Virus record (IMG/VR): IMGVR_UViG_3300045988_110030
Span: 90,200-154,199 of that record
Length of the DNA: 64,000 nucleotides
Direction: 5' to 3' (one strand)
DNA from: a virus
A program made the position numbers and the translations under genes. Below, one piece after another: positions 6,323-41,786 of this stretch. The notes below the pieces were generated by a model. It had not been told where the DNA came from. It ran no database searches and was given only the letters and a program-made list of their open reading frames with translations. Positions within the stretch are counted from its first letter, which is position 1. Every line of letters begins with the position of its first letter.

Positions 6323-9300
6323 TGGCTTCACAGTATAGTATTTTAAGGCAATATGCCCCGTATGTTAGTCCTTACAACATAGATCTTGTTAAGGACGTTA
6401 TGATGTACAAACAGCAGAAGGTTGATGCTGCTCGTGAAAAGATCTATACCCAGGTAGATTATCTTATGGGTCAAGAGATAGATAAGCCTGAAGCCCGTGC
6501 TTATATGGAAGATAAGATGTCAGGTGTGATTGCTAACATCAATCAAAAATTCAAAGGCGTGGATCTTTCTTCTGATGGTGTTACGAGAGCCATACAAGGA
6601 GAAATAAGTTCGGTGTTGGATGATACGGTCATTAACGCGATTGCCGGCACCAAAGAAGGTAAGAGGGTTATGAAGGAAATAGAATCTATAAAACAGAATC
6701 ATCCTGAACTTTATTCTCCTATTAATGAATGGCATGCTTTGGATCCTTATTATAAATGGCGATCAGATGGTAAAGCCGGATCGAGGCTTGGAGGTCTTCA
6801 TTATTCTCCTTATATTGATTATACTAAGGAAATAAATAAATTGGTTAGTGATTTTAGGGAAAACAATAAAGGAAGGAAGATTCAGACTACAGAATATGAT
6901 GTAGAGGGTAAACCTACTGGTGGAATTATAGAAGTCAACGTAGATGAACTTACTGATTCCCAGATAAGGAATTTCGTGTCTGCTAACTTATCTGAAAACA
7001 TGAGGAATCAGATGAGAATAGAAGCATCATACATGGCAGCTACCAATCCAGTATTCAGTAATCCGGATTTGGTTAGCCAATACATTGGATCTTATGTCGA
7101 AAGATACGATAGGCATATAGGAGCATTGGAAGCAAAAAAGAAATCAGTAGGGGATAATAAGGATATTATTGATCGTATCGATAGTCAGATACAGGAAGCT
7201 AAAAATCAGAAAGCAGAAGCCAAGAGGGAGGCAGATATGATAATAGCTTCATCAGATCCGGTAGCGGCTGCTAATTTTGTTGTTACCAATAATCTTTTCG
7301 ATAAGATGACTGATGCATGGAGATACGACAATACAAGTTTTGAAAGGAAGAAAGATGATCTTTATTTTGCAAGATTGGCAGAGGATAGGGCTCAGCAAAA
7401 GTTTTTGACTGACAATGCCAAGTCTATGGTTGAAATATCATTGGCGAATGAGCAGCTTGCTCAGGCTAAGATTGAAACCGAATACATGCGTACTTACGGT
7501 TCCAAGATGGGCACTGAAAGCTCATCCGGAGGCACAAGAGGAGCAGGCGGTGTAGGAGTGCCGATGGCTCCTATGGACGGGCCTACGGCTATCAATTCTG
7601 GAACGGGTAAGATAGGATCTGTTAATTTGGCTAATATCCCTTATGAACAACTCACATCTTCTTCCACAGAGCGTAGAGCAAATTTATTGAAACTATATAA
7701 TTCATTATCTCCTACAGACAGAAGCAATATCGTTGCAGCATCATACGAAGAAGAAAAGACTGACCCAGGATTGTATGCTAATATGACTCCCGAAGAACGA
7801 GTGTATTCGTATTTAAAAAATAATGGAGGTCAGAAAAATGGATATTTCGGACAAGGCAATAACAGATTATCGGAAGCTTATGACGCTTTATTGGTTTCTG
7901 ATTCTAAGGCAAATGGAGCTTCGAAGGCTATAAATAATATAACTGATTATCAAATAGATAATATAGTTACTGAAAAAAATAAGGATATTATCAGGAAAGT
8001 TCGTGATGCTAAGTTCATGAAAGGAAATTCTTTTATGAATCTTACTGATACTGATGATAAGGCTGGAGCTTTCCTACTCGCCACGGCCATAACAACTGGT
8101 GTATCTGATGCCGTAGGGTTTAGAGAATACATGATGAACCCTTCAAGAGGAATAGATATTCTTAGTGCTATATCTCCGTCATTAGGAGCTAAGGCGAGTG
8201 CCGGTAAGTTGGGGAAAAACATATCTGATGCTATTACAAGCGATGGCAATAGTTCTTCTACTGGTACGTTGGCTCTTATTAATGGAATGAAGAAACTCAA
8301 TGGCGATCCTGATTTTAATATATCTGATTATATGACCATAGATAAGGACGGTGATATAGATTTAAAAGATTATCAGGAAGGTGAACCGTTAACTATTACC
8401 CAGCTAAGATATGCTGAGAAAAACAGTAGGGTGTCTGATATGATAGCAGGTCAGATGCAGGATGAGATAAAAATGTCCGTGTCTCCCGATCAGATTTCTG
8501 ATAAGTTATCTCAGTATCATTACCTTGATTCTTACAAAAGATACAATTGGAATGCTGATTCACCGGAAAAGTCTTTACAGAAGGCTCAGTTTAGAAGATT
8601 GTCTGGTTACATGGCAGGAAAGGTAAACAATCTGGATCCTACTGCTATTAATACCATCAACATGGACGCCGAGATAGATAATGGCACTGTCAGAAGATTT
8701 TTGACTGCTCAAGTAGGATCCGGTAGAGACTCTTATGTTACAGAAAGGGTAGAGATTACGAATGATGAGCTTCTTAAGGCAGGCATAGATCCTTCAGTTG
8801 AAGAGCGCAATTATCCGGTAGATGGTTACAAATCAAGTTTTGGAACCTGTGATTTTGTAGATACGGGAAAGAAGGAAGGTTATTCTTATGATAAGTATCT
8901 TATACGTAATGGTCTTCCCCGTTTGGCTTCTAAGGCTGATGTCAAGAATGATCTTTATGATATAGTAAAAATACATGGTTCTTACCTTAAGCCAGAAGAA
9001 ATGAATGTTGTTAAAACCCTTGTTGATAATTTTATTGACATGTCTGATAATATATCAGTTCAGTTGGAAGGAATGGATGATAGGGGTTCGAGAGAGGTAG
9101 CGGTCAATTTCTATGACAAAAGGACTAAAAATTCTAAAAATCCTGCATTGTTATTCTCGGATTTTGTTCCTTTGGATCCAGGTAATGATGAGTATGCGGA
9201 TTACTGGAATAACATTCACCAGAAGTGTCCTCAGTATTTCTTTGTAAAATACGTGAAGGAAGCTGTTCAGGAGCGTCTTGATCAGATGAGGGATCCATAT

Positions 9301-18376: not shown

Positions 18377-18805
18377 ATATATGCACGTATATCAATAACA
18401 TACAAGAAAAGTTAGATTTTCATTGTTTATGAATTATTTTTATTAAGTTTGCAATATTAGTTTCAGGAAGGGATTATAGAAATAGGAAAAAGTAAGAACC
18501 GGACGTAACTAATAACAGTAGGAAATGAGAATCAGTACCATCAAACGTAATAACAGCATTCATCTTATGTATAAAAACATTATGAATGATTTAGGTCAAT
18601 TAAGAACTGTAGTTTCAAAATCCTATATTTATAATCTGATACAAAATCAAACCGGATTAAGTATCAGAACTATATCCCATGTCTTGAATCATACAAAAGA
18701 ACAGGATACAGATTCTTTGTGAAAGGCATACATTTTCATATATTTGTGTGTTCTTTAGTTTTTAGATTTAAGTTTTTCATGGTATTAGTTTAGATTAGTG
18801 TAGAT

Positions 18806-19894: not shown

Positions 19895-19905
19895 GTTTAT
19901 TTACA

Positions 19906-19945
19906 GGTGGTGTTTTGAAAGAATAAAAAACACTACCTTTTTTTT
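19906..19945 (+). terminator. Intrinsic terminator. An 11-bp stem (ggtggtgtttt / aaaacactacc) is followed by T8.
   Basis: Directly read. Lies 12 nt after the stop at 19894. Confidence 0.65.
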
Positions 19946-20014
19946 GTTTCTGTTTTTGCTGAAAATATTTCTCTTCTATAAGAAATAAACACACCTATAT
20001 TCCACCTTACAATC

Positions 20015-21079
20015 ATGAACTTTGTTACGTGCTTCATGCACGTATGTTTAACAATTAAATACTATAAAATTATGGGTGGTGATAAAATCGTCCTTTTAGA
20101 TGGAGCCGGGGCTAACGGTGGTGGTGCAGCCACTAACGGTCTTCTTTCAATGATTCCCGGCATGTTTGCTAATTTGATAGGTGGTAATAAAATGGATCCG
20201 AATCTGGTGGCGGCTTTGATGAACGGTCGTAACAACCAGGACGGTTTCGGTGGGGCTAACGGTTGGTGGCTCTGGATAATTGTTTTGTTCTGGCTGTGGG
20301 GTGGACGCGGCTTCGGTAACGGTTTTGGAAATGGCGGTGATTGTTGTGCCAATGGTTTGCCGGCTCAGTTGAATAACGATTACGGTCGTGAACTTTTGAT
20401 GCAGGCAATTCAAGGTAATCGTAGCGCCATAGATCAGATTGCTTCTGCTTTGAACTGTTCTACTACTCAACTTCAGAACGCTATCTGCAACGTACAGGGT
20501 GCTATTGATAAAGTAGCTGGTCAGGTAGGTATGACTTCTCAGGCTGTTATCAACGCAGTTCAACAACAAGGTTGTGAAATAGGAAATCAAATCAGCTCTT
20601 GCTGCTGCAATCTGAGTTCGTTGATCAATCAAAGCACTTGCCAGACTCAGGGAATGATTACTCAGCAAGGTTTTGATAACCAGCTTCGCACGTTGGAACA
20701 AACCAATATCTTGCAGAACGGTCTCAACCAAGGTCTGGCTAACAATCGTGAGCAAGCTACAAGCCAATTCAATATCTTGTCTGCGAAACTTGACGCCCAA
20801 ACCGTTATGATCAACGACAAATTCTGTCAGTTGGAAATGAGGGAGATGCAGAACACTATTGCTCAACTTCGTGAAGAAAAAGCGGCTTTGACAGCTTCGG
20901 CATTATCTCAGCAACAAACCCAGAATATCGTTGGTCAATTACGCCCGACGGCCGTCCCGGCCTACCCCTCTTGTTCTCCTTACCAGGCTTATACTTGGGG
21001 ACAGGTATTCGGAGGAGGTTGCTGCAATAACGGATGTGGATGTAACAACGGATGTTGCAATAACAACGCTGCTGTCTGA
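20015..21079 (+). CDS. Highly unusual low-complexity protein. It has a Gly/Asn-rich N-terminus, a Trp-rich transmembrane segment (GWWLWIIVLFWLWGG), GFGNGFGNGG repeats, a long Gln/Asn-rich helical region and a Cys/Asn/Gly C-terminal tail (GGGCCNNGCGCNNGCCNNNAAV).
   Basis: A 354-aa ORF. The start could instead be the internal MGGDK at ~20072. Directly read composition. No recognisable family. Confidence 0.55.
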   Translation: MNFVTCFMHVCLTIKYYKIMGGDKIVLLDGAGANGGGAATNGLLSMIPGMFANLIGGNKMDPNLVAALMNGRNNQDGFGGANGWWLWIIVLFWLWGGRGFGNGFGNGGDCCANGLPAQLNNDYGRELLMQAIQGNRSAIDQIASALNCSTTQLQNAICNVQGAIDKVAGQVGMTSQAVINAVQQQGCEIGNQISSCCCNLSSLINQSTCQTQGMITQQGFDNQLRTLEQTNILQNGLNQGLANNREQATSQFNILSAKLDAQTVMINDKFCQLEMREMQNTIAQLREEKAALTASALSQQQTQNIVGQLRPTAVPAYPSCSPYQAYTWGQVFGGGCCNNGCGCNNGCCNNNAAV

Positions 21080-21102
21080 TTTTATTAAGAGAGGAGGCTA
21101 AT

Positions 21103-21516
21103 ATGGCTTGTGTTTCTAAAATAGGATCGTTGTATGAGATGGTTACGAAGAATGTTATTGTCAGTACGACAAATACAATCTTCGGTATTAACCCACGGGC
21201 TTGGATCGCCCTTCCGTGTGAGGGTCTTATCCTTCTTAAGATAAGGCAAGTAGTCCCCACAGCCGGAAGTGCTCTACCGGTACAGATTGCGGTCCCGGCA
21301 AACAGCACAGTTTCAACAGTAGGAGCCGACACCTGTTGCTCGGTTACGGGAGTGAATGTCGTGAACCCTATTAACGTAGCTGTAACGGGTGCTGCTATGG
21401 TAAATGGCACAGAACGCCTTCTGTACTTCAATAAAGTTCGTGGCGTGTTAAGATTAATGGATTGCTGTGTTCCAGTAGCGGCAGCCCAGGCGTCTGAAGT
21501 TAAAGCAGGTAAATGA
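21103..21516 (+). CDS. Hypothetical protein (137 aa), rich in Val/Ala/Thr with paired cysteines.
   Basis: Preceded by a strong Shine-Dalgarno sequence (GAGAGGAGG, 8 nt upstream of the ATG). Sits in a cluster of co-oriented small genes. Confidence 0.55.
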   Translation: MACVSKIGSLYEMVTKNVIVSTTNTIFGINPRAWIALPCEGLILLKIRQVVPTAGSALPVQIAVPANSTVSTVGADTCCSVTGVNVVNPINVAVTGAAMVNGTERLLYFNKVRGVLRLMDCCVPVAAAQASEVKAGK

Positions 21517-21566
21517 TTTCAGTAGGGTGATGGAGATCATCACCCTATTTTCACCTAAATAATATT

Positions 21567-22061
21567 TTGATCATGTTTTCAGATTTGAAGAAAGGGTTTC
21601 AGGTACATACCCTTGATACTAATACAGTACCTAAATACGAATTGGGAAAGGTAGTAGCCGTATCCGAACCCAGGTATCTTCCTCCTCAGCCGGGTCAGTA
21701 TCAGGCGATGCAGACCCGCGTGGTGGATCTGACGGTAGAGCTCACTGGCGAAACCAAGACCTATACGGTTCCGGAATCCCAGAATGTGGCTAAGGCTATG
21801 GGTATAACATTATCTACCAGCATAGATCCGATTATGAACGAACTGAATGCTATAAAAAACACCAGTCAAGACATAATAAACAGCGTAGATGCCCATCGTG
21901 CCAAGATAGAGGCTTGTGAATCTATATTAGAAGACATCAATCCGGCATTCAAACAAACGAGAGAGCAGGATCGTAAAATAGCTGGTATAGAAAATAAGGT
22001 GAATGACCTTACTGATTCATTCGAAGATTTAAAGAAGTTGATTGTAGAACGTTTGAAATAA
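21567..22061 (+). CDS. Hypothetical coiled-coil protein (164 aa).
   Basis: An ORF with a heptad-like C-terminal half, tightly spaced with its neighbours. Confidence 0.5.
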   Translation: MIMFSDLKKGFQVHTLDTNTVPKYELGKVVAVSEPRYLPPQPGQYQAMQTRVVDLTVELTGETKTYTVPESQNVAKAMGITLSTSIDPIMNELNAIKNTSQDIINSVDAHRAKIEACESILEDINPAFKQTREQDRKIAGIENKVNDLTDSFEDLKKLIVERLK

Positions 22062-22068
22062 GTATAAT

Positions 22069-22440
22069 ATGATAGTATATGATTTAAATTCAGGGCAAAG
22101 AGAATATCCTGGATATGATGAGATAGAAGATAGACGAGGCAGAGGCCGTAGTCGTCGTTCTGATGGGACGTACATGGGTTACGGACATGGATTCCTTCCT
22201 CCTTATGACCATTATGGTATGCATGAAAAAATGAAAGAGATGGAAGAACGCGAAAACGAGTTGGAAGAAAGAGAAAGAAGACTCGAAGAACGCGAACGTC
22301 GTCATGAAATGGAGGACCGGGAATACCGGAGGATGGGTTACGAATCTTACCCGACCGATTATTATGGAGACGACAGATACTACGGTGACGGACCTCAGAT
22401 GCGTAGAGGTCGCGGACGTGGCAGAGGTCGTTCTTATTGA
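22069..22440 (+). CDS. Hypothetical low-complexity protein. It is RG-, Tyr- and ER-rich (RGRGRS…, EERERRLEERERRHEMEDREYRR, C-terminal RGRGRGRGRSY).
   Basis: Directly read. It resembles eukaryote-type RGG/RG nucleic-acid-binding low-complexity regions. Confidence 0.5.
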   Translation: MIVYDLNSGQREYPGYDEIEDRRGRGRSRRSDGTYMGYGHGFLPPYDHYGMHEKMKEMEERENELEERERRLEERERRHEMEDREYRRMGYESYPTDYYGDDRYYGDGPQMRRGRGRGRGRSY

Positions 22441-22533
22441 GGAGCAGACGCAGAGGATCCAGCTTATCAGAAATATGTAGATACTTACGGCTACCATTTT
22501 TCTAATGCTCTCGCTGATGAGGCGGTAAAGAAG

Positions 22534-22827
22534 ATGGTCAACGTCGATGGATCCAAGAGGATCTGGAAGCAGCCGGAAATAAAAGATATTTTTGAAAAGT
22601 GCGGAGCGAAGAAGCCGGATAAAGCGACATGGGGCGATGTCCAATATGTCTTTGCAATGTACTATTCGGATGGTTTTCCGAAGGTCTTCAAATGTGAGAA
22701 CGAGTTGGTGAAAGCTACGTTAATGTATTTGGATGATCCGGATGCTCCCGAAGGAGTAGCCTTTATAAGATGGCTTGCCGTGCAAGATTACCTCGGCGAA
22801 AAAATAAACTGGAAGGATCTGACCTGA
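22534..22827 (+). CDS. Hypothetical protein (97 aa).
   Basis: The ORF ends ~100 nt before a GC-rich hairpin plus T-run at 22930-22985. Confidence 0.4.
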   Translation: MVNVDGSKRIWKQPEIKDIFEKCGAKKPDKATWGDVQYVFAMYYSDGFPKVFKCENELVKATLMYLDDPDAPEGVAFIRWLAVQDYLGEKINWKDLT

Positions 22828-22929
22828 GATCCAGATCCAGGTCCTTCCGGTGGTGCGGGAGCCATAGTGAAAAATATGATTCCCGCATTCCCGTTTTTCC
22901 CGTTTGGAAAAAAAGAATAAAAATGTTAT

Positions 22930-24562
22930 ACCGGTCGGCGGGCAATAGAATACCCGTGGCCGGTTTGTTTCACATAACTTTTTTTGGATATGAATATAGC
23001 ACACGAATCTAAATCGAATAAAACCCCATTGTATTTAATAGGAGAGTTGATTGGCGTACCGAATACGGTTATGGACTCAGCATTGCATGAACTGAAAGAT
23101 AGAATAGACAAAGACCCTAAATGGGTGATTATATACCACTTTACACCAAAAGCGTAAAGTAATACACATTTATACGGAAATTCGTACCGGGTTACACCAA
23201 AACCCTCTACCTTCTGGTAACATCGTTACATCAAAGGATTCTTTTTCCGATTTACGGATGATGTTAAAAGCACCATTGATATCAGCATTAATTGTCTTAC
23301 CAGAAGAGGTTTTAAACAATCCTCGTTTGATCCTTCTTCCTTTGTAGGATTCATGTTTGCAAATCCGTTCATTATCTAAAAAGCTACATTTTGAAGTATA
23401 AGATTCTTCAACGATCTTAACATTAATACCTTCTAATGTAGCTTTATACGATATCATACTGATAAACGAATTAAAAGGAATAGATACAAAGTTCTGATTA
23501 TTACGCTTTCCAATATTGATCTCTTGTTTCCAGTATTTGTTATGACCGATTATGATCGTATTAATACCATTGGAAACTACATGATTAACCAATATTCTAC
23601 TTGCTTTATGCAGATAGTCTTTGATCTTGTTATTCCTTTTGTCGGTTAATGACCTTATTTGTTTTGAAATCTGTTTATTGTCTTTTAACTTAGATTTTAA
23701 GAATGCTAACCTTTTGTTATAATATTGGTTAATAGACTTTAGTGGCCTACCATTGATGATAAAACAAGAACCGGTGTTTGAAACACAAGATGCTAAATTA
23801 TCCAATCCTATGTCGATGCCAAGATAGTTCCCATTATCGGACATAAGATTCTTTTCCTTCTTATTGTAAACTATTTCAAGAACAATATACCCATTCTTAG
23901 GAATGAATCTAAGTTGTTGAATATTTTGCTTGTTAGTTCTTGTTGTAAAGGAAAACTGTTTTGGTAACTTAACAATGCCTTGTTTTATCCATTTTTGAGA
24001 AAAAGCATTTGTTGCAAAAACAGCAGGAAACAAACCACCCTTGTTGAGATACCTTGGCATTCTTACTTCCTCAGAATACTCACCTCTATTCTTTTTATTA
24101 AAGAGATTGAAGAAAGATTTAAAGTTTCTATCAACCATCATCAACACTTGTTGAGCAACCGGTGCTGGTAAAGCACGATAGTCAACATCATTTTCTGTTC
24201 TTAACTTCTTTTCAAGAGAATAGTAGTTTAGGTACTTATACTTTACAGTATTATCATCCTTGTATTGAAAATAATACTGTCTAACAACATATAACCCTTT
24301 ATTGTATAAGTTTTTACACTTATGCAATAGATCATAAAGTTCATTGTAATAAACAGAACTTGGTTTGATCGTATGTTGTTCGACTAATCTCATGACACAA
24401 ATATAGAAATTATTATTTATATATGAAAACAAATTGGCGTATTTGTGGTGTAAAGTTGTATATAATTACCTAAAGATGTTAAAAATTGGCTCGAATCTTT
24501 ACCCAAGATCTGAACCTATTTTTTTTCAATACCGGGCCCGATGCGATTTTAACGTATCGGGT
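22930..24562 (-). mobile_element. IS200/IS605-family tnpB-only (IS1341-like) insertion element. Boundaries are approximate. The tnpB 3'-flanking 150-250 nt (≈22930-23170) would encode the TnpB guide RNA (reRNA/omega-RNA).
   Basis: The tnpB ORF is flanked by GC-rich subterminal hairpins in an AT-rich background. One is 22930-22964 (accggtcggcggg…cccgtggccggt). The other is 24528-24553 (cccgatgcg-attttaa-cgtatcggg followed by TTTTT). There is no TnpA (HuH) ORF. TTCCCG-type short repeats occur at 22880-22915. Confidence 0.55.
23170..24432 (-). CDS. tnpB: TnpB (OrfB) RNA-guided nuclease of the IS200/IS605 family.
   Basis: RuvC-I is YLGIDIGLDNLA. RuvC-II is …TIIIGHNKYWKQEINIGKRNN… with its Glu. 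A zinc finger (CSFLDNERICKHESYKGRRIKRG…) is followed by RuvC-III (INADINGAFNI). The likely true start is the internal MRLVEQ…. Confidence 0.85.
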   Translation of the reverse strand: MFSYINNNFYICVMRLVEQHTIKPSSVYYNELYDLLHKCKNLYNKGLYVVRQYYFQYKDDNTVKYKYLNYYSLEKKLRTENDVDYRALPAPVAQQVLMMVDRNFKSFFNLFNKKNRGEYSEEVRMPRYLNKGGLFPAVFATNAFSQKWIKQGIVKLPKQFSFTTRTNKQNIQQLRFIPKNGYIVLEIVYNKKEKNLMSDNGNYLGIDIGLDNLASCVSNTGSCFIINGRPLKSINQYYNKRLAFLKSKLKDNKQISKQIRSLTDKRNNKIKDYLHKASRILVNHVVSNGINTIIIGHNKYWKQEINIGKRNNQNFVSIPFNSFISMISYKATLEGINVKIVEESYTSKCSFLDNERICKHESYKGRRIKRGLFKTSSGKTINADINGAFNIIRKSEKESFDVTMLPEGRGFWCNPVRISV

Positions 24563-24869: not shown

Positions 24870-25230
24870 CCGTAGAAGAATTAGCTAATAAAAGATACGG
24901 TGGCGAATTTGTTTTCATAATTGTGAATAATACATAACTCATACAAATCATAACCAATTTGTATTGTATTATGTATAATAGCCAAAAGCTATTCCGATTA
25001 TTAGCCTAAGTGTTGAAACAAACACTACGTTATTTAAGAATAGATAGTTACCTACGGATGTTTGCCCAAGTTCGTAGCTCTAAGGTAAGTGATTAAACAA
25101 TGGTTGTATTCGAGCTATAGTGTTGCTTACTAAAAACCTTAAATAACATTGGCGATGGGTACTAACAGAGTTTTACTCTGACTTATGTTGAATAAACATT
25201 AAAAACGTTTGTAGATATGGTGTACGTACA
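24870..25230 (+). ncRNA. Putative IscB omega-RNA (guide plus scaffold). It lies immediately upstream of, and overlaps, the iscB start.
   Basis: A 350-nt ORF-free region with nested GC-containing stems (for example ctacgga…ttcgtag and gttacc…ggtaag). It is located exactly where IscB omega-RNAs are encoded. Boundaries are not determinable by eye. Confidence 0.45.
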
Positions 25231-26437
25231 AGACATAAATGGTAAACCTATGATGCCTACAACAAGGCATGGTAAGGTTAGGAGACTGCTCAAATCAAAC
25301 AAAGCAGTCGTTGTAAACCTATGTCCGTTTACCATCCGATTGACGTACATATCCGATAGTTACAAACAAGAAATCGTGTTAGGCGTTGATGCTGGGACTA
25401 AACATGTTGGTTTATCAGCTACGACGAAAAGCAAAGAACTTTACAGCAGTGAAGTGATCCTTAGAAATGATATCGTAGATCTTTTGTCTACCAGAAGAGA
25501 GCTACGGAAAGCAAGACGGAACAGGTTAAGATATAGAAAACCTCGTTTTAATAATAGAGTAAAAAACAAGCGTCCAGGATGGATAGCACCTTCGGTGCGG
25601 TACAAAGTAGACGCCCATATTCGTGTTATTGACAATGTATGTTCTATATTACCAATATCTCGTATTGTTATTGAAGTAGCTCAATTTGATACTCAAAAGA
25701 TTAACAATCCTAATATATCAGGTAAGGAATATCAGGAAGGAAACAAACTTGGTTTTTGGAACGTAAGGGAGTATGTTTTAGCAAGGGATGGGCATAAATG
25801 TCAGTATTGTAAAGGAAAATCGAAATCCAAAATCCTTAATGTCCATCACATCGAATCCCGAAAAACGGGAGGTGATTCCCCTTCTAATCTTATTACCTTA
25901 TGTGAAACTTGTCATAAAGAATACCATAAAGGTAATATAGATTTAAAGATCAAACGGGGATCGTCGCTTCGCGACGCAGCCGTAATGGGAATTATGAAAT
26001 GGAGGTTGTATGAAGAGTTAAAATCCAGATACGACAGAGTTTTTATGACGTTTGGTTACATTACGAAACATAATCGGATTAAATACGGTATTGAAAAATC
26101 CCATACATCCGACGCGTTTGTCATTTCTATGAACATTAATGCGAAACGGATCGAACGTCAATATTTAAAACGTTTAATTCGTAGACATAACAGGCAAATA
26201 CATAAAATGAAAATTTTAAAAGGAGGAAAGAAGAAAAACAATCAAGCTCCTTTTGAGGTTTTCGGTTTTAGATTGTTTGATAAAGTGTTGTATAACAATG
26301 AAATATTCTTTGTTTATGGAAGGAGAAAATCGGGGAGTTTCAACATCAGGGATTTCAACGGAGAAAATTCAAAAGATGTTTCACGCAAAAAGTTTAAACT
26401 CATTAGAGGGAAGAGGCATCCGATTATATTAAAGTAA
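25217..26437 (+). CDS. iscB: IscB (OMEGA system RNA-guided nuclease, the Cas9 ancestor), with PLMP, RuvC-I, an Arg-rich bridge helix, RuvC-II, HNH and RuvC-III.
   Basis: The N-terminus MVYVQDINGKPMMPTTRHGKVRRLLK is the PLMP domain. RuvC-I is IVLGVDAGTKHVGLSA. The bridge helix is RRELRKARRNRLRYRKPRFNNR. RuvC-II is IVIEVAQFD. HNH is HKCQYCKGKS…NVHHIESRKTGGDSPSNLITLCETCHKEYH. RuvC-III is HTSDAFVISMN. At 406 aa it is a typical IscB length. Confidence 0.85.
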   Translation: MVYVQDINGKPMMPTTRHGKVRRLLKSNKAVVVNLCPFTIRLTYISDSYKQEIVLGVDAGTKHVGLSATTKSKELYSSEVILRNDIVDLLSTRRELRKARRNRLRYRKPRFNNRVKNKRPGWIAPSVRYKVDAHIRVIDNVCSILPISRIVIEVAQFDTQKINNPNISGKEYQEGNKLGFWNVREYVLARDGHKCQYCKGKSKSKILNVHHIESRKTGGDSPSNLITLCETCHKEYHKGNIDLKIKRGSSLRDAAVMGIMKWRLYEELKSRYDRVFMTFGYITKHNRIKYGIEKSHTSDAFVISMNINAKRIERQYLKRLIRRHNRQIHKMKILKGGKKKNNQAPFEVFGFRLFDKVLYNNEIFFVYGRRKSGSFNIRDFNGENSKDVSRKKFKLIRGKRHPIILK

Positions 26438-26474
26438 ATGAATAGATTTAATAAATTTAATAGAAAAACGTATC

Positions 26475-36302: not shown

Positions 36303-36536
36303 TTATTTAATTTTTACGATCTTAATGGAATCTCCTATATTGTATTCCCCTTGGTGCCCAACGAATTTTATTAACCTATTACTGTGAGCTATTGAAACTC
36401 TTTCGTCTTCACCATAATACATTATACATCCACCACGTAAAGGTTTTAAATCGTATATAACCCATCCGTCATTAACTTGATTATCATATTTGCATGATGA
36501 TAATACAAGTGTCATCAATAAAACAAAATATTTCAT
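36303..36536 (-). CDS. Hypothetical secreted protein (77 aa) with a signal-peptide-like N-terminus.
   Basis: ORF. Confidence 0.35.
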   Translation of the reverse strand: MKYFVLLMTLVLSSCKYDNQVNDGWVIYDLKPLRGGCIMYYGEDERVSIAHSNRLIKFVGHQGEYNIGDSIKIVKIK

Positions 36537-40005: not shown

Positions 40006-40368
40006 TTATGCGCCTATGGCTGCCTCTAAATTTCCTATAATATCAGTTTCTATCTCATCGATTTTATCATCAATGGTTGAAACCGCATTCTCTAAATCCC
40101 CTACAATACTTTCCATATCATCAACAACCGCCTCCATATTAGCTACAGCCTCATCTGATTGATAATATCTTTCTGTATCTTGTAACGACTCCGGCATATT
40201 GTCTCTTGATTCTGTCTCTTCATCTAAAATCATATCAACATCATCCTTGGCTGAATCCAAATTATGCCTAACCTCTGACAGCTTTGATTTGATAAACTCA
40301 AGATCTGTTTTATGCTTTTCCAAATTGGAAATAATATCCTCTATTTTCTTACGTCTTTTGCTGTTCAT
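40006..40368 (-). CDS. Hypothetical acidic coiled-coil protein (120 aa).
   Basis: ORF. Confidence 0.45.
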   Translation of the reverse strand: MNSKRRKKIEDIISNLEKHKTDLEFIKSKLSEVRHNLDSAKDDVDMILDEETESRDNMPESLQDTERYYQSDEAVANMEAVVDDMESIVGDLENAVSTIDDKIDEIETDIIGNLEAAIGA

Positions 40369-41786
40369 GCTTTTATTCTATTATAATATTCGATAATCTT
40401 TTCTTTTCTATCTCCTGGTTTTACTGCCATATTCTCAGCCAAGAACCTAAAATACGACACCGGTATGTCCTTGAATCTAATTCCTTCATATTTTCCAAAC
40501 CACATTATTATACTGTCAAGATCGTCTTCTCTCCTACCATCTCCATTTACGGATTTAAGCGAGGCTGCCCGGCGAAGGATCTCGTCTTTGGTAATAATAT
40601 CACCCATCCTTATATTGGACAGAAGTTGATCGCCGGCAAACATACACCATCCCTTAGAAGGAAATTGTTCGATCGTTAAATCTTCTATCCGGCCGAAACG
40701 CCTCATGTTGTCGCAGCAATCAACTATCAGTGCCTCTTTCTTGTCAGGATGGATGCGGACGGCTCGGCCTACAATTTGATAGAATACTGAATATGAGAAC
40801 GTTGGTCGTCCAAACATCACACAATCAAGTTCAGGAAAATCAAATCCGGTAGCAAGCGTTGAATAATTAAACACGACCTTTAACTTACCTTCTTTGAAAT
40901 CGGATATGATTTGCTCTCTTTTCTTTTTGGTTGTTAGCGATGTTACGACACCTGTTATGGCTCCCATCCTGGCATTCATGAACTCGGATATTCTATTACA
41001 TGATTCGATAGAATCCATGCAAACCAAAATGGCTTTACGCTCGTTCATAAGTTGAAGAAGGCGCTTGTAGATAGAGTTGTTTAAGCCGTTTCGTACAATG
41101 CTTTCTTTAATAGATTCGTTGGTGTATTCGGCTCCGGTACTGTTTAACATCAGAGCCGATTCATCAAACGACCATCGTTCGTACTTAAGTGGACACCAAA
41201 ACCCTTGAGAAGTTAGTTCTTGTATTTGAGTCACATGAACTATTTTCTTGAAGAAGTTATGCTCGTCTTTCGTCAGCATATTGAGCTTGCTGTAGTTTCC
41301 TTCCAGCATGGAACTGTAGGTTCGGAGGCGGCAGGGAGTGGCGGTGAAGCCCAGCACCTTCGCCTCTGGGAACCTGTTCATAAACTCCATAAATTCAGAA
41401 CCTTCTTCAGGAGAATACCCGCTATGCACCTCATCTATCAATAATGTGTCTATCCCTATATCTTTCAACCTTGCTACGTCTTTCTTTATGCTTTTAAGTG
41501 TAGCATAAGTCATAGCCGATAACTCTTTTTTTTTACATGAAGCAGAATATATGGTAGGTTTAGAACCGAATGATACAGCCTTCGCATAATTCTGCTCCAG
41601 AATCTCTTTAGATGGCTGTAATACAAGGATAGGTCTTTTTAATTCATGAGCTATCTTGCTAATTATCAAAGACTTCCCCGCTGCACACGGCAAGACTTCT
41701 ATGCCAGGCTTCTTAGATCTTCCTGTAAGGAACTTAAGCCCGGCATCTACTGCCTCTTTTTGGTAAGGTCTAAGTTCAAAGCCCAT
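40365..41786 (-). CDS. Superfamily-2 DEAD/DEAH-box helicase (473 aa).
   Basis: Walker A is LPCAAGKS. The DEAH-like motif is LIDEVH. Motif III is GFTATP. Motif VI is QIVGRAVR. Confidence 0.8.
   Translation of the reverse strand: MGFELRPYQKEAVDAGLKFLTGRSKKPGIEVLPCAAGKSLIISKIAHELKRPILVLQPSKEILEQNYAKAVSFGSKPTIYSASCKKKELSAMTYATLKSIKKDVARLKDIGIDTLLIDEVHSGYSPEEGSEFMEFMNRFPEAKVLGFTATPCRLRTYSSMLEGNYSKLNMLTKDEHNFFKKIVHVTQIQELTSQGFWCPLKYERWSFDESALMLNSTGAEYTNESIKESIVRNGLNNSIYKRLLQLMNERKAILVCMDSIESCNRISEFMNARMGAITGVVTSLTTKKKREQIISDFKEGKLKVVFNYSTLATGFDFPELDCVMFGRPTFSYSVFYQIVGRAVRIHPDKKEALIVDCCDNMRRFGRIEDLTIEQFPSKGWCMFAGDQLLSNIRMGDIITKDEILRRAASLKSVNGDGRREDDLDSIIMWFGKYEGIRFKDIPVSYFRFLAENMAVKPGDRKEKIIEYYNRIKA

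Follow-up and report, generated by a model that had tools for sequence, protein, structure and literature searches.

The window analyzed here is a 64,000-nucleotide stretch of viral DNA (positions 90,200 to 154,199 of IMG/VR virus record IMGVR_UViG_3300045988_110030), and the system in question is a block of five consecutive plus-strand genes, here named A to E. Sequence comparison indicates that these genes are part of a five-to-seven-gene module that is widespread in the phages of gut Bacteroidales. The families that make up the module are catalogued solely as being of "unknown function," and we found no published account of the module itself. The role we favor for it, with rather less than even confidence, is that of a late, envelope-directed accessory to the holin-endolysin-spanin pathway, which would act in lysis timing, lysis execution or egress. 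In the window the last two genes share a frame that is split by a conserved TGA codon, at which read-through may occur. Judging by its nucleotide sequence, the window comes from an epsilon crAss-like phage; it is 98.5% identical to the human gut phage csAssE-Sib (OR575929, 151 kb) across all of 19900-22900.

Selection on the open reading frames

The block had been singled out in an earlier reading of the window's letters and translations (the sequence-only reading) for the extreme compositions of its proteins, and that reading had named lack of translation of the open reading frames (ORFs) as an alternative. Our selection test, which compared the window with a related clade (L070) whose ORF1 is 88-89% identical, disposes of this alternative. 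The ratio of nonsynonymous to synonymous substitution rates (dN/dS) in ORF1 is 0.038 in the annotated frame versus 0.14-4.2 in the other five frames. In ORF2 to ORF5 the synonymous sites are saturated, with proportions of synonymous differences (pS) of 0.81-0.89, while the proportions of nonsynonymous differences (pN) are 0.13-0.30; for ORF4, pN is 0.30 against a pS of 0.81. Each of the five ORFs is a genuine gene maintained by purifying selection.

The idea that untranslated, low-complexity DNA has produced chance ORFs could draw on the extreme composition itself and on three long minus-strand ORFs (20147-20866, 20856-21431, and 22090-22644) that overlap the region. It is refuted by the low dN/dS of ORF1 in the annotated frame alone, by the conservation of the ORF2 to ORF5 proteins despite saturated synonymous sites, by the thousands of homologs with conserved gene order, and by the confident folds predicted for the products of B and C. 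The DNA is also nearly free of repeats: Tandem Repeats Finder (TRF) detects in 19900-22900 solely a 21-nt tandem repeat of 2.9 copies (22235-22296, plus strand), which codes for the ER-repeat of D. The long antisense ORFs are by-products of composition.

A module shared by phages of the Bacteroidales

The block was compared ORF by ORF with crAss-like genomes, with C3_41T2LP (a cultured phage of Bacteroides uniformis), with 28 loci of bacterial genomes or metagenome-assembled genomes (among them scaffolds of Alistipes putredinis DSM 17216, Parabacteroides segnis, and P. leei), and with further metagenomic contigs. Genes A-B-C-D-E are co-linear in this comparison, with a sixth gene, F, and an upstream helix-turn-helix (HTH) gene added in most other lineages. 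The carriers comprise crAss-like genomes of the Steigviridae, the Suoliviridae, and the epsilon group, cultured phages, and Bacteroidales prophages. On one contig the module stands immediately after a TMP_3 tape-measure gene, and cultured Parabacteroides and B. fragilis phages of 40-54 kb carry C and/or E. The carriers thus have different virion types but share one host order, a pattern typical of host-directed rather than structural functions. PhiCrAss001, 002, and DAC15 gave no match to the module.

The sequence-only reading had viewed the block as accessory cargo. In the sense of strain-specific cargo this is contradicted by its presence in csAssE-Sib, in more than 60 near-identical viral contigs, and in many phage lineages. 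What that reading reported of the proteins themselves has fared better. The strings it quoted (GWWLWIIVLFWLWGG, GFGNGFGNGG, SSCCCNLSS, GGGCCNNGCGCNNGCCNNNAAV, and RGRGRGRGRSY) are all present in the ORF translations, and the extreme compositions recur in the same slots of dozens of distant loci. These compositions are conserved and characterize five protein families that occur as a set.

Searches of all module proteins in Pfam, PHROGs, NCBIfam, and PADLOC returned only DUF or unknown-function families, and comparison with solved structures in the PDB, by single sequence and by profile, returned nothing significant, in keeping with the earlier judgment that none of these proteins resembles a standard structural or lysis protein. 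Hits to the PADLOC defense models were coiled-coil noise only, the best (E = 7e-4) being to a partial ZorA region. The csAssE-Sib paper (Babkin 2024) leaves these genes undiscussed, the module is undescribed in Yutin et al. 2021, in the Crassvirales review, and in the paper on the C3 phage, and a full-text literature search for DUF7841, the family to which E belongs, likewise found no description of it.

Two very short contigs from isolate assemblies of unrelated Proteobacteria, a 2.3-kb "Vibrio olivae" contig (L084) and a 1.4-kb Thauera sp. contig (L104), carry the module with 52-72% identity to the gut-phage versions; sequencing or assembly contamination is the most likely source of both. 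A number of abnormally long "fusion" calls (P0003, P0004, P0133, and P0229 among them), involving module genes together with Bro-N, DUF7841, and TnpB, were left out of the alignments, and these probably result from alternative-genetic-code gene calling or from chimeric short assemblies.

Gene A and its putative membrane anchor

Gene A (ORF1, 20072-21079, plus strand) lies in an ORF that opens at 20015. Its start is most likely M20, at 20072, as indicated by the alignment of homologs and by a 335-aa cluster of 1072 members. The protein is rich in Gly (12%), Asn (11%), and Gln (10%) and contains 19 Cys. It has 4237 homologs at E <= 1e-3 in a large protein collection and 935 clusters at 50% identity, and it matches PHROG 16490 (phrog_16490, unknown function) at E=3.3e-43, with residues 56-347 aligned to positions 6-284 of the 286-position profile. 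The layout of the protein runs from an N-terminal region of about 64 aa, through a Trp/Phe-rich hydrophobic segment with Gly/Phe/Asn flanks and a Pro-free, Gln/Asn-rich region with conserved Cys, to a Cys/Gly/Asn tail.

The hydrophobic core, WWLWIIVLFWLW (20264-20299, plus strand), is a putative single transmembrane (TM) anchor. On the Wimley-White octanol scale, its best 19-residue window scores -14.4 kcal/mol, and A has no other strong segment. The sequence-only reading had described a Trp-packed TM segment; strong hydrophobicity is upheld by this scale, while on the Kyte-Doolittle scale the segment stays below threshold because of its Trp content. Every member of family A has one such Trp/Phe-rich segment, with a free energy of -9 to -16 kcal/mol in most (Wimley-White), flanked by Gly-rich GFG/GNG motifs and preceded by an N-terminal region containing DPNL. 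A membrane-active role for ORF1, as proposed earlier, is plausible.

Beyond the anchor lies a Pro-free stretch of 194 residues, which supports the helical region of about 200 residues noted in the sequence-only reading. Strong helical periodicity is confined to a smaller part of it, an amphipathic, heptad-like region at residues ~106-170 counted from M20 (20387-20581, plus strand), where the period is 3.5-3.65 (3.55-3.65 for the mapped feature) and the power rises to 30 times the median. A CCC motif (20600-20608, plus strand) is nearly invariant in the family, being at least 90% conserved among 21 diverse sequences, and the Pro-free Gln/Asn-rich region carries, besides CCC, INDKFCQLEMREMQN in most clades. 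The C-terminal Cys/Gly/Asn tail, GGGCCNNGCGCNNGCCNNNAAV in the window (21011-21076, plus strand), is hypervariable. Tails begin after a conserved RPxxxPAY and are 24-52 aa long, with indels even between close relatives, and paired Cys, Gly, Asn, and aromatic residues are kept throughout. Two tail types occur: the short Cys-rich tail of the window, and in other clades a longer, Gly/aromatic-rich tail that ends in WG (…CVAAQYGLGFG…WG).

A homolog with a Gly-flanked TM segment, two CCC motifs, and DQFCQIKSRE is found next to a tail gene in Caudoviricetes sp. vir335 (L115, 4857-5780). The host assigned to vir335 is a methanogenic archaeon of the Methanomassiliicoccales, and genes B to F are not detectable at its A locus. 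Either this host assignment is wrong, or A functions without the other module genes and without a bacterial envelope.

Homologs of A are labeled "spike protein/glycoprotein" or "outer capsid protein/viral fiber" in GenBank. The former label can be explained by a sub-threshold heptad resemblance. A profile of family A run against PDB sequences aligns with heptad repeat 1 (HR1) of the coronavirus spike at a non-significant E=0.03-0.15 (best 0.034, over ~45 residues), the single ORF1 sequence has no match in the PDB, and homology is not established. In coronavirus S2, a class I fusion protein, the C-terminus combines an aromatic, Trp-rich membrane segment with a Cys-rich tail. The Gln/Asn-rich heptad region of A is the part that aligns weakly to HR1, but in A the putative TM segment comes early in the chain, and ~240 residues separate it from the Cys tail at the C-terminal end. 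Family A also lacks a signal peptide, a receptor-binding part, and homology to fusion peptides, and the likeness is a compositional analogy rather than a sign of membership.

Genes B, C, and F

Gene B (ORF2, 21103-21516, plus strand) is predicted to encode a small beta-sandwich protein. Its description in the sequence-only reading as Cys-paired and Val/Ala/Thr-rich is accurate (V 16%, A 12%, T 8%; three Cys features, two of which are CC pairs), and its profile gathers 1187 homologs. The N-terminus, MACVSKIGSLY, contains neither a hydrophobic leader nor a lipobox, for which reason ORF2 was rejected as an o-spanin or other lipoprotein. Gene C (ORF3, 21573-22061, plus strand) is taken to start at the ATG at 21573 instead of the TTG at 21567, and its product is predicted to form a beta-barrel of SH3/Tudor/KOW type at the N-terminus, with two long helices after it. 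The ORF3 profile gathers 179 homologs, and the protein matches PHROG 28898 (unknown function) at E=3.9e-19, with residues 3-158 aligned to positions 1-162 of 181. The folds predicted for B and C are confident, and that of C has no significant similarity to solved structures, those of virions included. No hydrophobic segments are present in the products of B to E (ORF2 to ORF5).

Gene F is absent from the window and present in most other lineages. It encodes a protein of 125-165 aa with a conserved HExxH, a downstream Glu in a GEE motif, and a C-terminal Cys, and it is a small HExxH zincin. The F protein of C3_41T2LP is labeled "PolyVal metallopeptidase" in GenBank, and none of 15 F sequences matches Pfam MPTase-PolyVal; single sub-threshold matches were obtained to SprT-like, M78, and DUF6782.

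Genes D and E and the TGA codon between them

Gene D (ORF4, 22069-22440, plus strand) encodes a protein dominated by Arg (20%), Glu (15%), Gly (14%), and Tyr (12%), of which 45% of residues are charged and which ends in RGRGRGRGRSY. The D slot holds a charged protein in all lineages: across about 20 loci it is 57-123 aa long and 36-56% charged. One half of this protein is helical and acidic, repeats of the GYGER type are present, and the C-terminus is rich in Arg (GERRGVxGTGRYSRYRR or RRGRRRRR). Gene E as called (ORF5, 22534-22827, plus strand) encodes the C-terminal three-quarters of DUF7841 (PF25223; E=3.8e-9, 37.2 bits against a gathering cut-off of 25.2 bits). The ATG at 22534 lines up with a conserved internal Met of the domain, and ORF5 as called is an incomplete gene.

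The rest of the domain is encoded upstream, where ORF4 and ORF5 occupy the same frame and are split by a single conserved in-frame TGA (22438-22440, plus strand), a candidate read-through site. The 31 codons that follow it, GADAEDPAYQKYVDTYGYHFSNALADEAVKK (22441-22533, plus strand), contain no ATG, GTG, or TTG and code for the conserved N-terminus of DUF7841: the stretch fits the DUF7841 consensus, and a tblastn search with full-length DUF7841 reaches into it. The D-TGA-E arrangement recurs unchanged in 66 near-identical loci and throughout the 88% clade (14 of 14 loci). Between the two clades, the 93 nt after the TGA are 67% identical; the D-E frame is stop-free, with a pN of 0.20 against a pS of 0.82, and the other two frames contain stops and have pN > pS. 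A shared frame across the TGA, together with coding constraint on the start-less 31 codons, implies a D::E fusion produced by read-through. The simplest reading is that UGA is read through at this site by a fraction of ribosomes, which in the window's phage would yield a 252-aa D::E fusion beside free D.

Other explanations for the junction were rejected. Non-canonical initiation of ORF5 finds no candidate start codon that is kept between clades. Neither genome-wide TGA recoding nor a phage opal suppressor is accepted as the cause; genes in the window end in all three stop codons, and the window has no second same-frame stop junction of this kind. No opal suppressor is found among the six tRNAs that csAssE-Sib encodes (four anticodons were read, and the other two tRNAs are annotated as Tyr and Lys), a finding that also weighs against read-through itself.

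In some relatives the two genes occur as one. Suoliviridae have D and E joined, as a DUF7841 domain (E=2e-43 and 2e-39) with a D-like tail ending in RGRSVRYIRY. The protein called "RNA polymerase sigma factor/ubiquitin-like protein" in GenBank (unnamed in cr1_1) is such a DUF7841 domain with an acidic, Arg/Tyr-rich tail (L112, 4141-4740; L114, 4138-4743; L113, 4015-4758). This "sigma factor-like" gene upstream in Suoliviridae was considered as a regulator and rejected, as it is the DUF7841::D fusion. The DUF7841 protein of phage PD691P6 has a low-complexity, His/Asp/Glu-rich N-terminal extension. Another locus (L121) has two DUF7841 genes in one module (7803-8222 and 8674-9219), one on either side of F.

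Known parallels in phages are the programmed UGA read-through that extends the Qbeta coat protein to A1 and fixed-ratio recoding such as the frameshift of tail chaperones. The D-TGA-E junction resembles such cases in its single conserved in-frame UGA and its start-less but constrained extension, and it would likewise give two products from one frame. It differs in that the carrier is a double-stranded DNA (dsDNA) phage of Bacteroidales, that no read-through-stimulating element has been identified, and that the extension is a complete folded domain which is a separate gene in most relatives.

The sequence-only reading had likened D to eukaryotic RGG-box, RNA-binding proteins. D does share RG repeats, Tyr-Gly motifs, and mixed-charge blocks with FUS-like proteins, but it lacks RRM and KH domains, is net acidic, and is the conserved partner of DUF7841, so the analogy is compositional only. 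Searches in Pfam and NCBIfam found no RNA-binding or metal-binding domain in the module, ORF4 having RG repeats only. A wider form of this idea would make the module a set of condensate-forming, RNA- or metal-binding low-complexity proteins, with D as an RGG/Tyr "sticker," A as an FG-like and Q/N-rich protein, and the Cys tail of A as metallothionein-like. The conserved Arg, Tyr, and Gly repeats of D, the GFGNG motifs and Q/N richness of A, and the paired-Cys tails would fit, as would the lineages in which D is a disordered arm on folded DUF7841, the usual architecture of scaffold proteins. The missing binding domains and the net acidic rather than basic character of D count against it, and condensation is in any case a physical property rather than a biological role and would be compatible with other explanations. 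We consider it very improbable as an account of what the module does.

Proximity to lysis genes and timing of expression

Lysis genes were identified by Pfam as PF05105 holins, as putative endolysins (M15, GH24, Amidase_2, and DUF5675), and as DUF6549, and u-spanin-like proteins were identified by a lipobox combined with a C-terminal TM domain (TMD). At 21 of 39 loci the module has holin, endolysin, or spanin-type genes no more than 3 kb away; some of these loci are closely related, so that independent lineages number fewer than 39. The gene orders are varied. Parabacteroides prophages have holin, M15 endolysin, u-spanin-like lipoprotein, HTH gene, and then A to F; Suoliviridae have holin, DUF6549, E::D, A, B, and C, after which cr1_1 has a coiled-coil protein of 169 aa and DUF5675 (a putative endolysin); PD691P6 has an A-like gene, an intervening gene, C, D::E, holin, Amidase_2, and DUF6549; and BF503P4 has E, holin, an intervening gene, and M15. 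Such variety argues for functional, and not just inherited, adjacency. In two of the Bacteroidales prophages (L087, 5979-6383, and L085, 5988-6458), the gene straight after the endolysin encodes a protein of u-spanin architecture, with a lipobox and a C-terminal TM helix, that has no Pfam or PHROG family.

Timing is indicated by relatives in which TAG is recoded. In cr52_1 (L112) and cr109_1 (L114), TAG makes up 0.44-0.56 of the Gln codons in C and 0.40-0.54 of those in the adjacent DUF6549 gene. Gene A has two in-frame TAGs (~0.1 of its Gln codons), and B and E::D have none. Shares of 0.75-0.8 are reached in cr52_1 by two genes, one for a glycine-zipper protein and one for a GIY-YIG protein. 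Such recoding has been reported to mark late structural and lysis genes (Borges et al.). In these relatives A and C need the code switch, and the module is very probably expressed late.

Possible roles of the module

In the role that we favor, A would be anchored in the cytoplasmic membrane and oligomerize into a helical stalk, which its conserved Cys would staple by way of disulfides or a metal. B, C, and D/E would be its soluble partners, and A would act with them late on the host envelope beside the holin, endolysin, and spanin. E, with D as a disordered charged arm, would be the most likely holin-proximal regulator.

Comparison with known lysis proteins gives this proposal some precedent. 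A recalls the lambda i-spanin Rz, the T1 u-spanin gp11, the T4 antiholins RI and RIII, and holin T through its putative single TM anchor, which is followed by a long helical region with conserved Cys. Rz requires intermolecular disulfides, and in T4 holin T a single TMD stands between a short N-terminus and a large C-terminal domain. Like lysis-cassette accessories, the module is late and lies in or beside the holin-endolysin cassette in many lineages, and E is directly beside the holin gene in two cultured phage groups. The differences are considerable. A is about twice as long as an i-spanin, has a 40-80-aa region ahead of the TM segment, and shows no sequence or profile similarity to spanins, holins, or antiholins. 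A spanin's lipoprotein partner is absent here, and carriers often encode a u-spanin-like protein or DUF6549 separately. Known lysis systems have no counterpart of the five further, cytoplasmic-type partners, and in the window's phage the module is located away from lysis genes, unlike lysis-cassette accessories. The possibility that ORF1 is itself a spanin was dropped, since it lacks a lipoprotein partner and carriers already encode u-spanin-like proteins. In Pfam, NCBIfam, and PHROG it matches none of Rz, LysB, DUF6549, and the other spanin families. It does have one strong hydrophobic segment, which stands behind an N-terminal region of 64 aa, and neither a lipobox nor a C-terminal TMD is present.

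Several observations weigh against a role in lysis or egress. No homology to a known lysis protein was detected for any module member. In csAssE-Sib the recognizable lysis genes (40137-41636, among tail genes), which encode an M15 endopeptidase, a 195-aa TM protein, and a signal-peptide protein, are ~55 kb from the module, which stands at 96.6 kb; no PF05105-type holin was identified in that genome. No lysis gene is nearby in 18 of the 39 loci, a count that includes few seeds and some short flanks. As lysis cassettes lie among late and tail genes, the adjacency is partly confounded by late-gene clustering. Several carriers have a complete holin-endolysin-u-spanin set, and the module is thus dispensable for the canonical three steps. 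Finally, B to F lack export signals, which limits their contact with A to the cytoplasmic side.

Late expression and tail-gene neighbors would also suit proteins of the virion. Under this alternative, A would be a trimeric coiled-coil fiber or an ejected, membrane-penetrating protein, and B and C fiber or adaptor proteins; D/E would be carried inside the particle or ejected, and F would be a protease for processing. The module does lie on the late-gene strand among tail-fiber, tape-measure, and large structural genes, in-frame TAGs mark structural genes as well, and A has, like phage fibers such as the Pa193 gp47 tail fiber or those behind the reovirus sigma-1-like label, a predicted long helical stalk and a late-gene location. 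Conserved Cys and Cys-rich ends could knot the chains of an extracellular trimer, D could bind packaged DNA through its Arg-rich C-terminus, and homologs are annotated as "outer capsid protein/viral fiber." The fiber and spike labels rest on non-significant heptad similarity, however, and A has no significant sequence or profile match to fibers and carries a very hydrophobic segment, which is unusual for one. C has no significant similarity to any solved structure. The same module crosses differing virion architectures within one host order and is absent from the cultured crassviruses whose virions have been solved or defined by proteomics (PhiCrAss001, 002, and DAC15). A virion role is accordingly judged unlikely, well behind the late envelope-directed role.

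That role has a more ambitious version, in which the module is an unrecognized multi-protein lysis or egress machine made up of a Trp-anchored, Cys-stapled coiled-coil membrane protein, two small adaptors, and DUF7841 with a disordered arm, arm and domain being joined in a set ratio by UGA read-through in epsilon crAss-like phages. We regard this version as doubtful.

Genomic context in the window

As the sequence-only reading had it, the block stands between an antirepressor gene and two insertion sequence (IS)-type elements. The antirepressor gene upstream encodes Bro-N and ANT/KilAC domains (Pfam). Downstream and outside the module, a TnpB-type IS insertion on the minus strand (23123-24470; gene 23170-24432, PF01385 and PF07282) is a clean insertion relative to csAssE-Sib, which lacks it at this site. 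Beyond it, 24919-26471 (plus strand) is a replacement that contains an IscB-like gene (25217-26437; RRXRR, PF14239, at 3e-59, with HNH) and displaces the DUF2829 gene region of csAssE-Sib.

A small HTH-like ORF at 18525-18722 (plus strand), labeled "lactose operon repressor" in csAssE-Sib and without a Pfam match, may correspond to the regulator gene, DnaA_C-like or HTH_17, that other lineages carry just upstream of A. A scan for promoters and terminators found nothing exceeding shuffled expectation. The GC content of the module (20000-23000) is 0.42-0.47, and its GC at third codon positions (GC3) is 0.35-0.53, against 0.36-0.40 and 0.27-0.38 in neighboring genes; amino-acid composition or a separate evolutionary origin may account for the rise. 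Further along, a small minus-strand ORF (36303-36536) that begins with MKYFVLLMTLVLSSCKYD, a lipoprotein-type signal with a lipobox, heads an oppositely oriented gene block.

This setting would fit an autonomous cassette apart from lysis, devoted to superinfection exclusion, anti-defense, or host takeover and placed with its own regulator at a late-operon boundary. The module is sporadic among related phages, is often at the end of the late operon beside oppositely oriented early genes, and in many loci has a dedicated HTH gene just upstream. In the window's phage it lies between the antirepressor and the IS elements, far from lysis genes, with GC and GC3 slightly above those of its neighbors, and conflict systems often combine a membrane protein with a small zincin. 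Yet no PADLOC model matches, six conserved genes are many for exclusion, the in-frame TAGs make A and C dependent on the late code switch, and repeated linkage to lysis genes in varied orders would be unexpected for an independent moron. Such a cassette is, in our estimation, about as improbable as a virion role.

Conclusions

The late, envelope-directed accessory role in lysis or egress is the one we consider best suited to the module at present. Hardly any work exists on how Bacteroidales phages lyse and leave their hosts, though these phages dominate the human gut virome, and the module offers a specific experimental target: it occurs in hundreds of lineages, is linked to lysis genes, and consists of families without known function. 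Cultured carriers are available in C3_41T2LP, PD691P6, the BF503P4 group, and prophages of type strains. Several GenBank labels on its members are wrong or unsupported, namely "spike protein/glycoprotein," "outer capsid protein/viral fiber," "RNA polymerase sigma factor/ubiquitin-like protein," and "PolyVal metallopeptidase." The D-TGA-E junction, if it functions as proposed, would be a rare programmed stop-codon read-through in a dsDNA phage. Should the function of the module prove unrelated to lysis, this would be even less expected and would point to a categorically new system in these phages.

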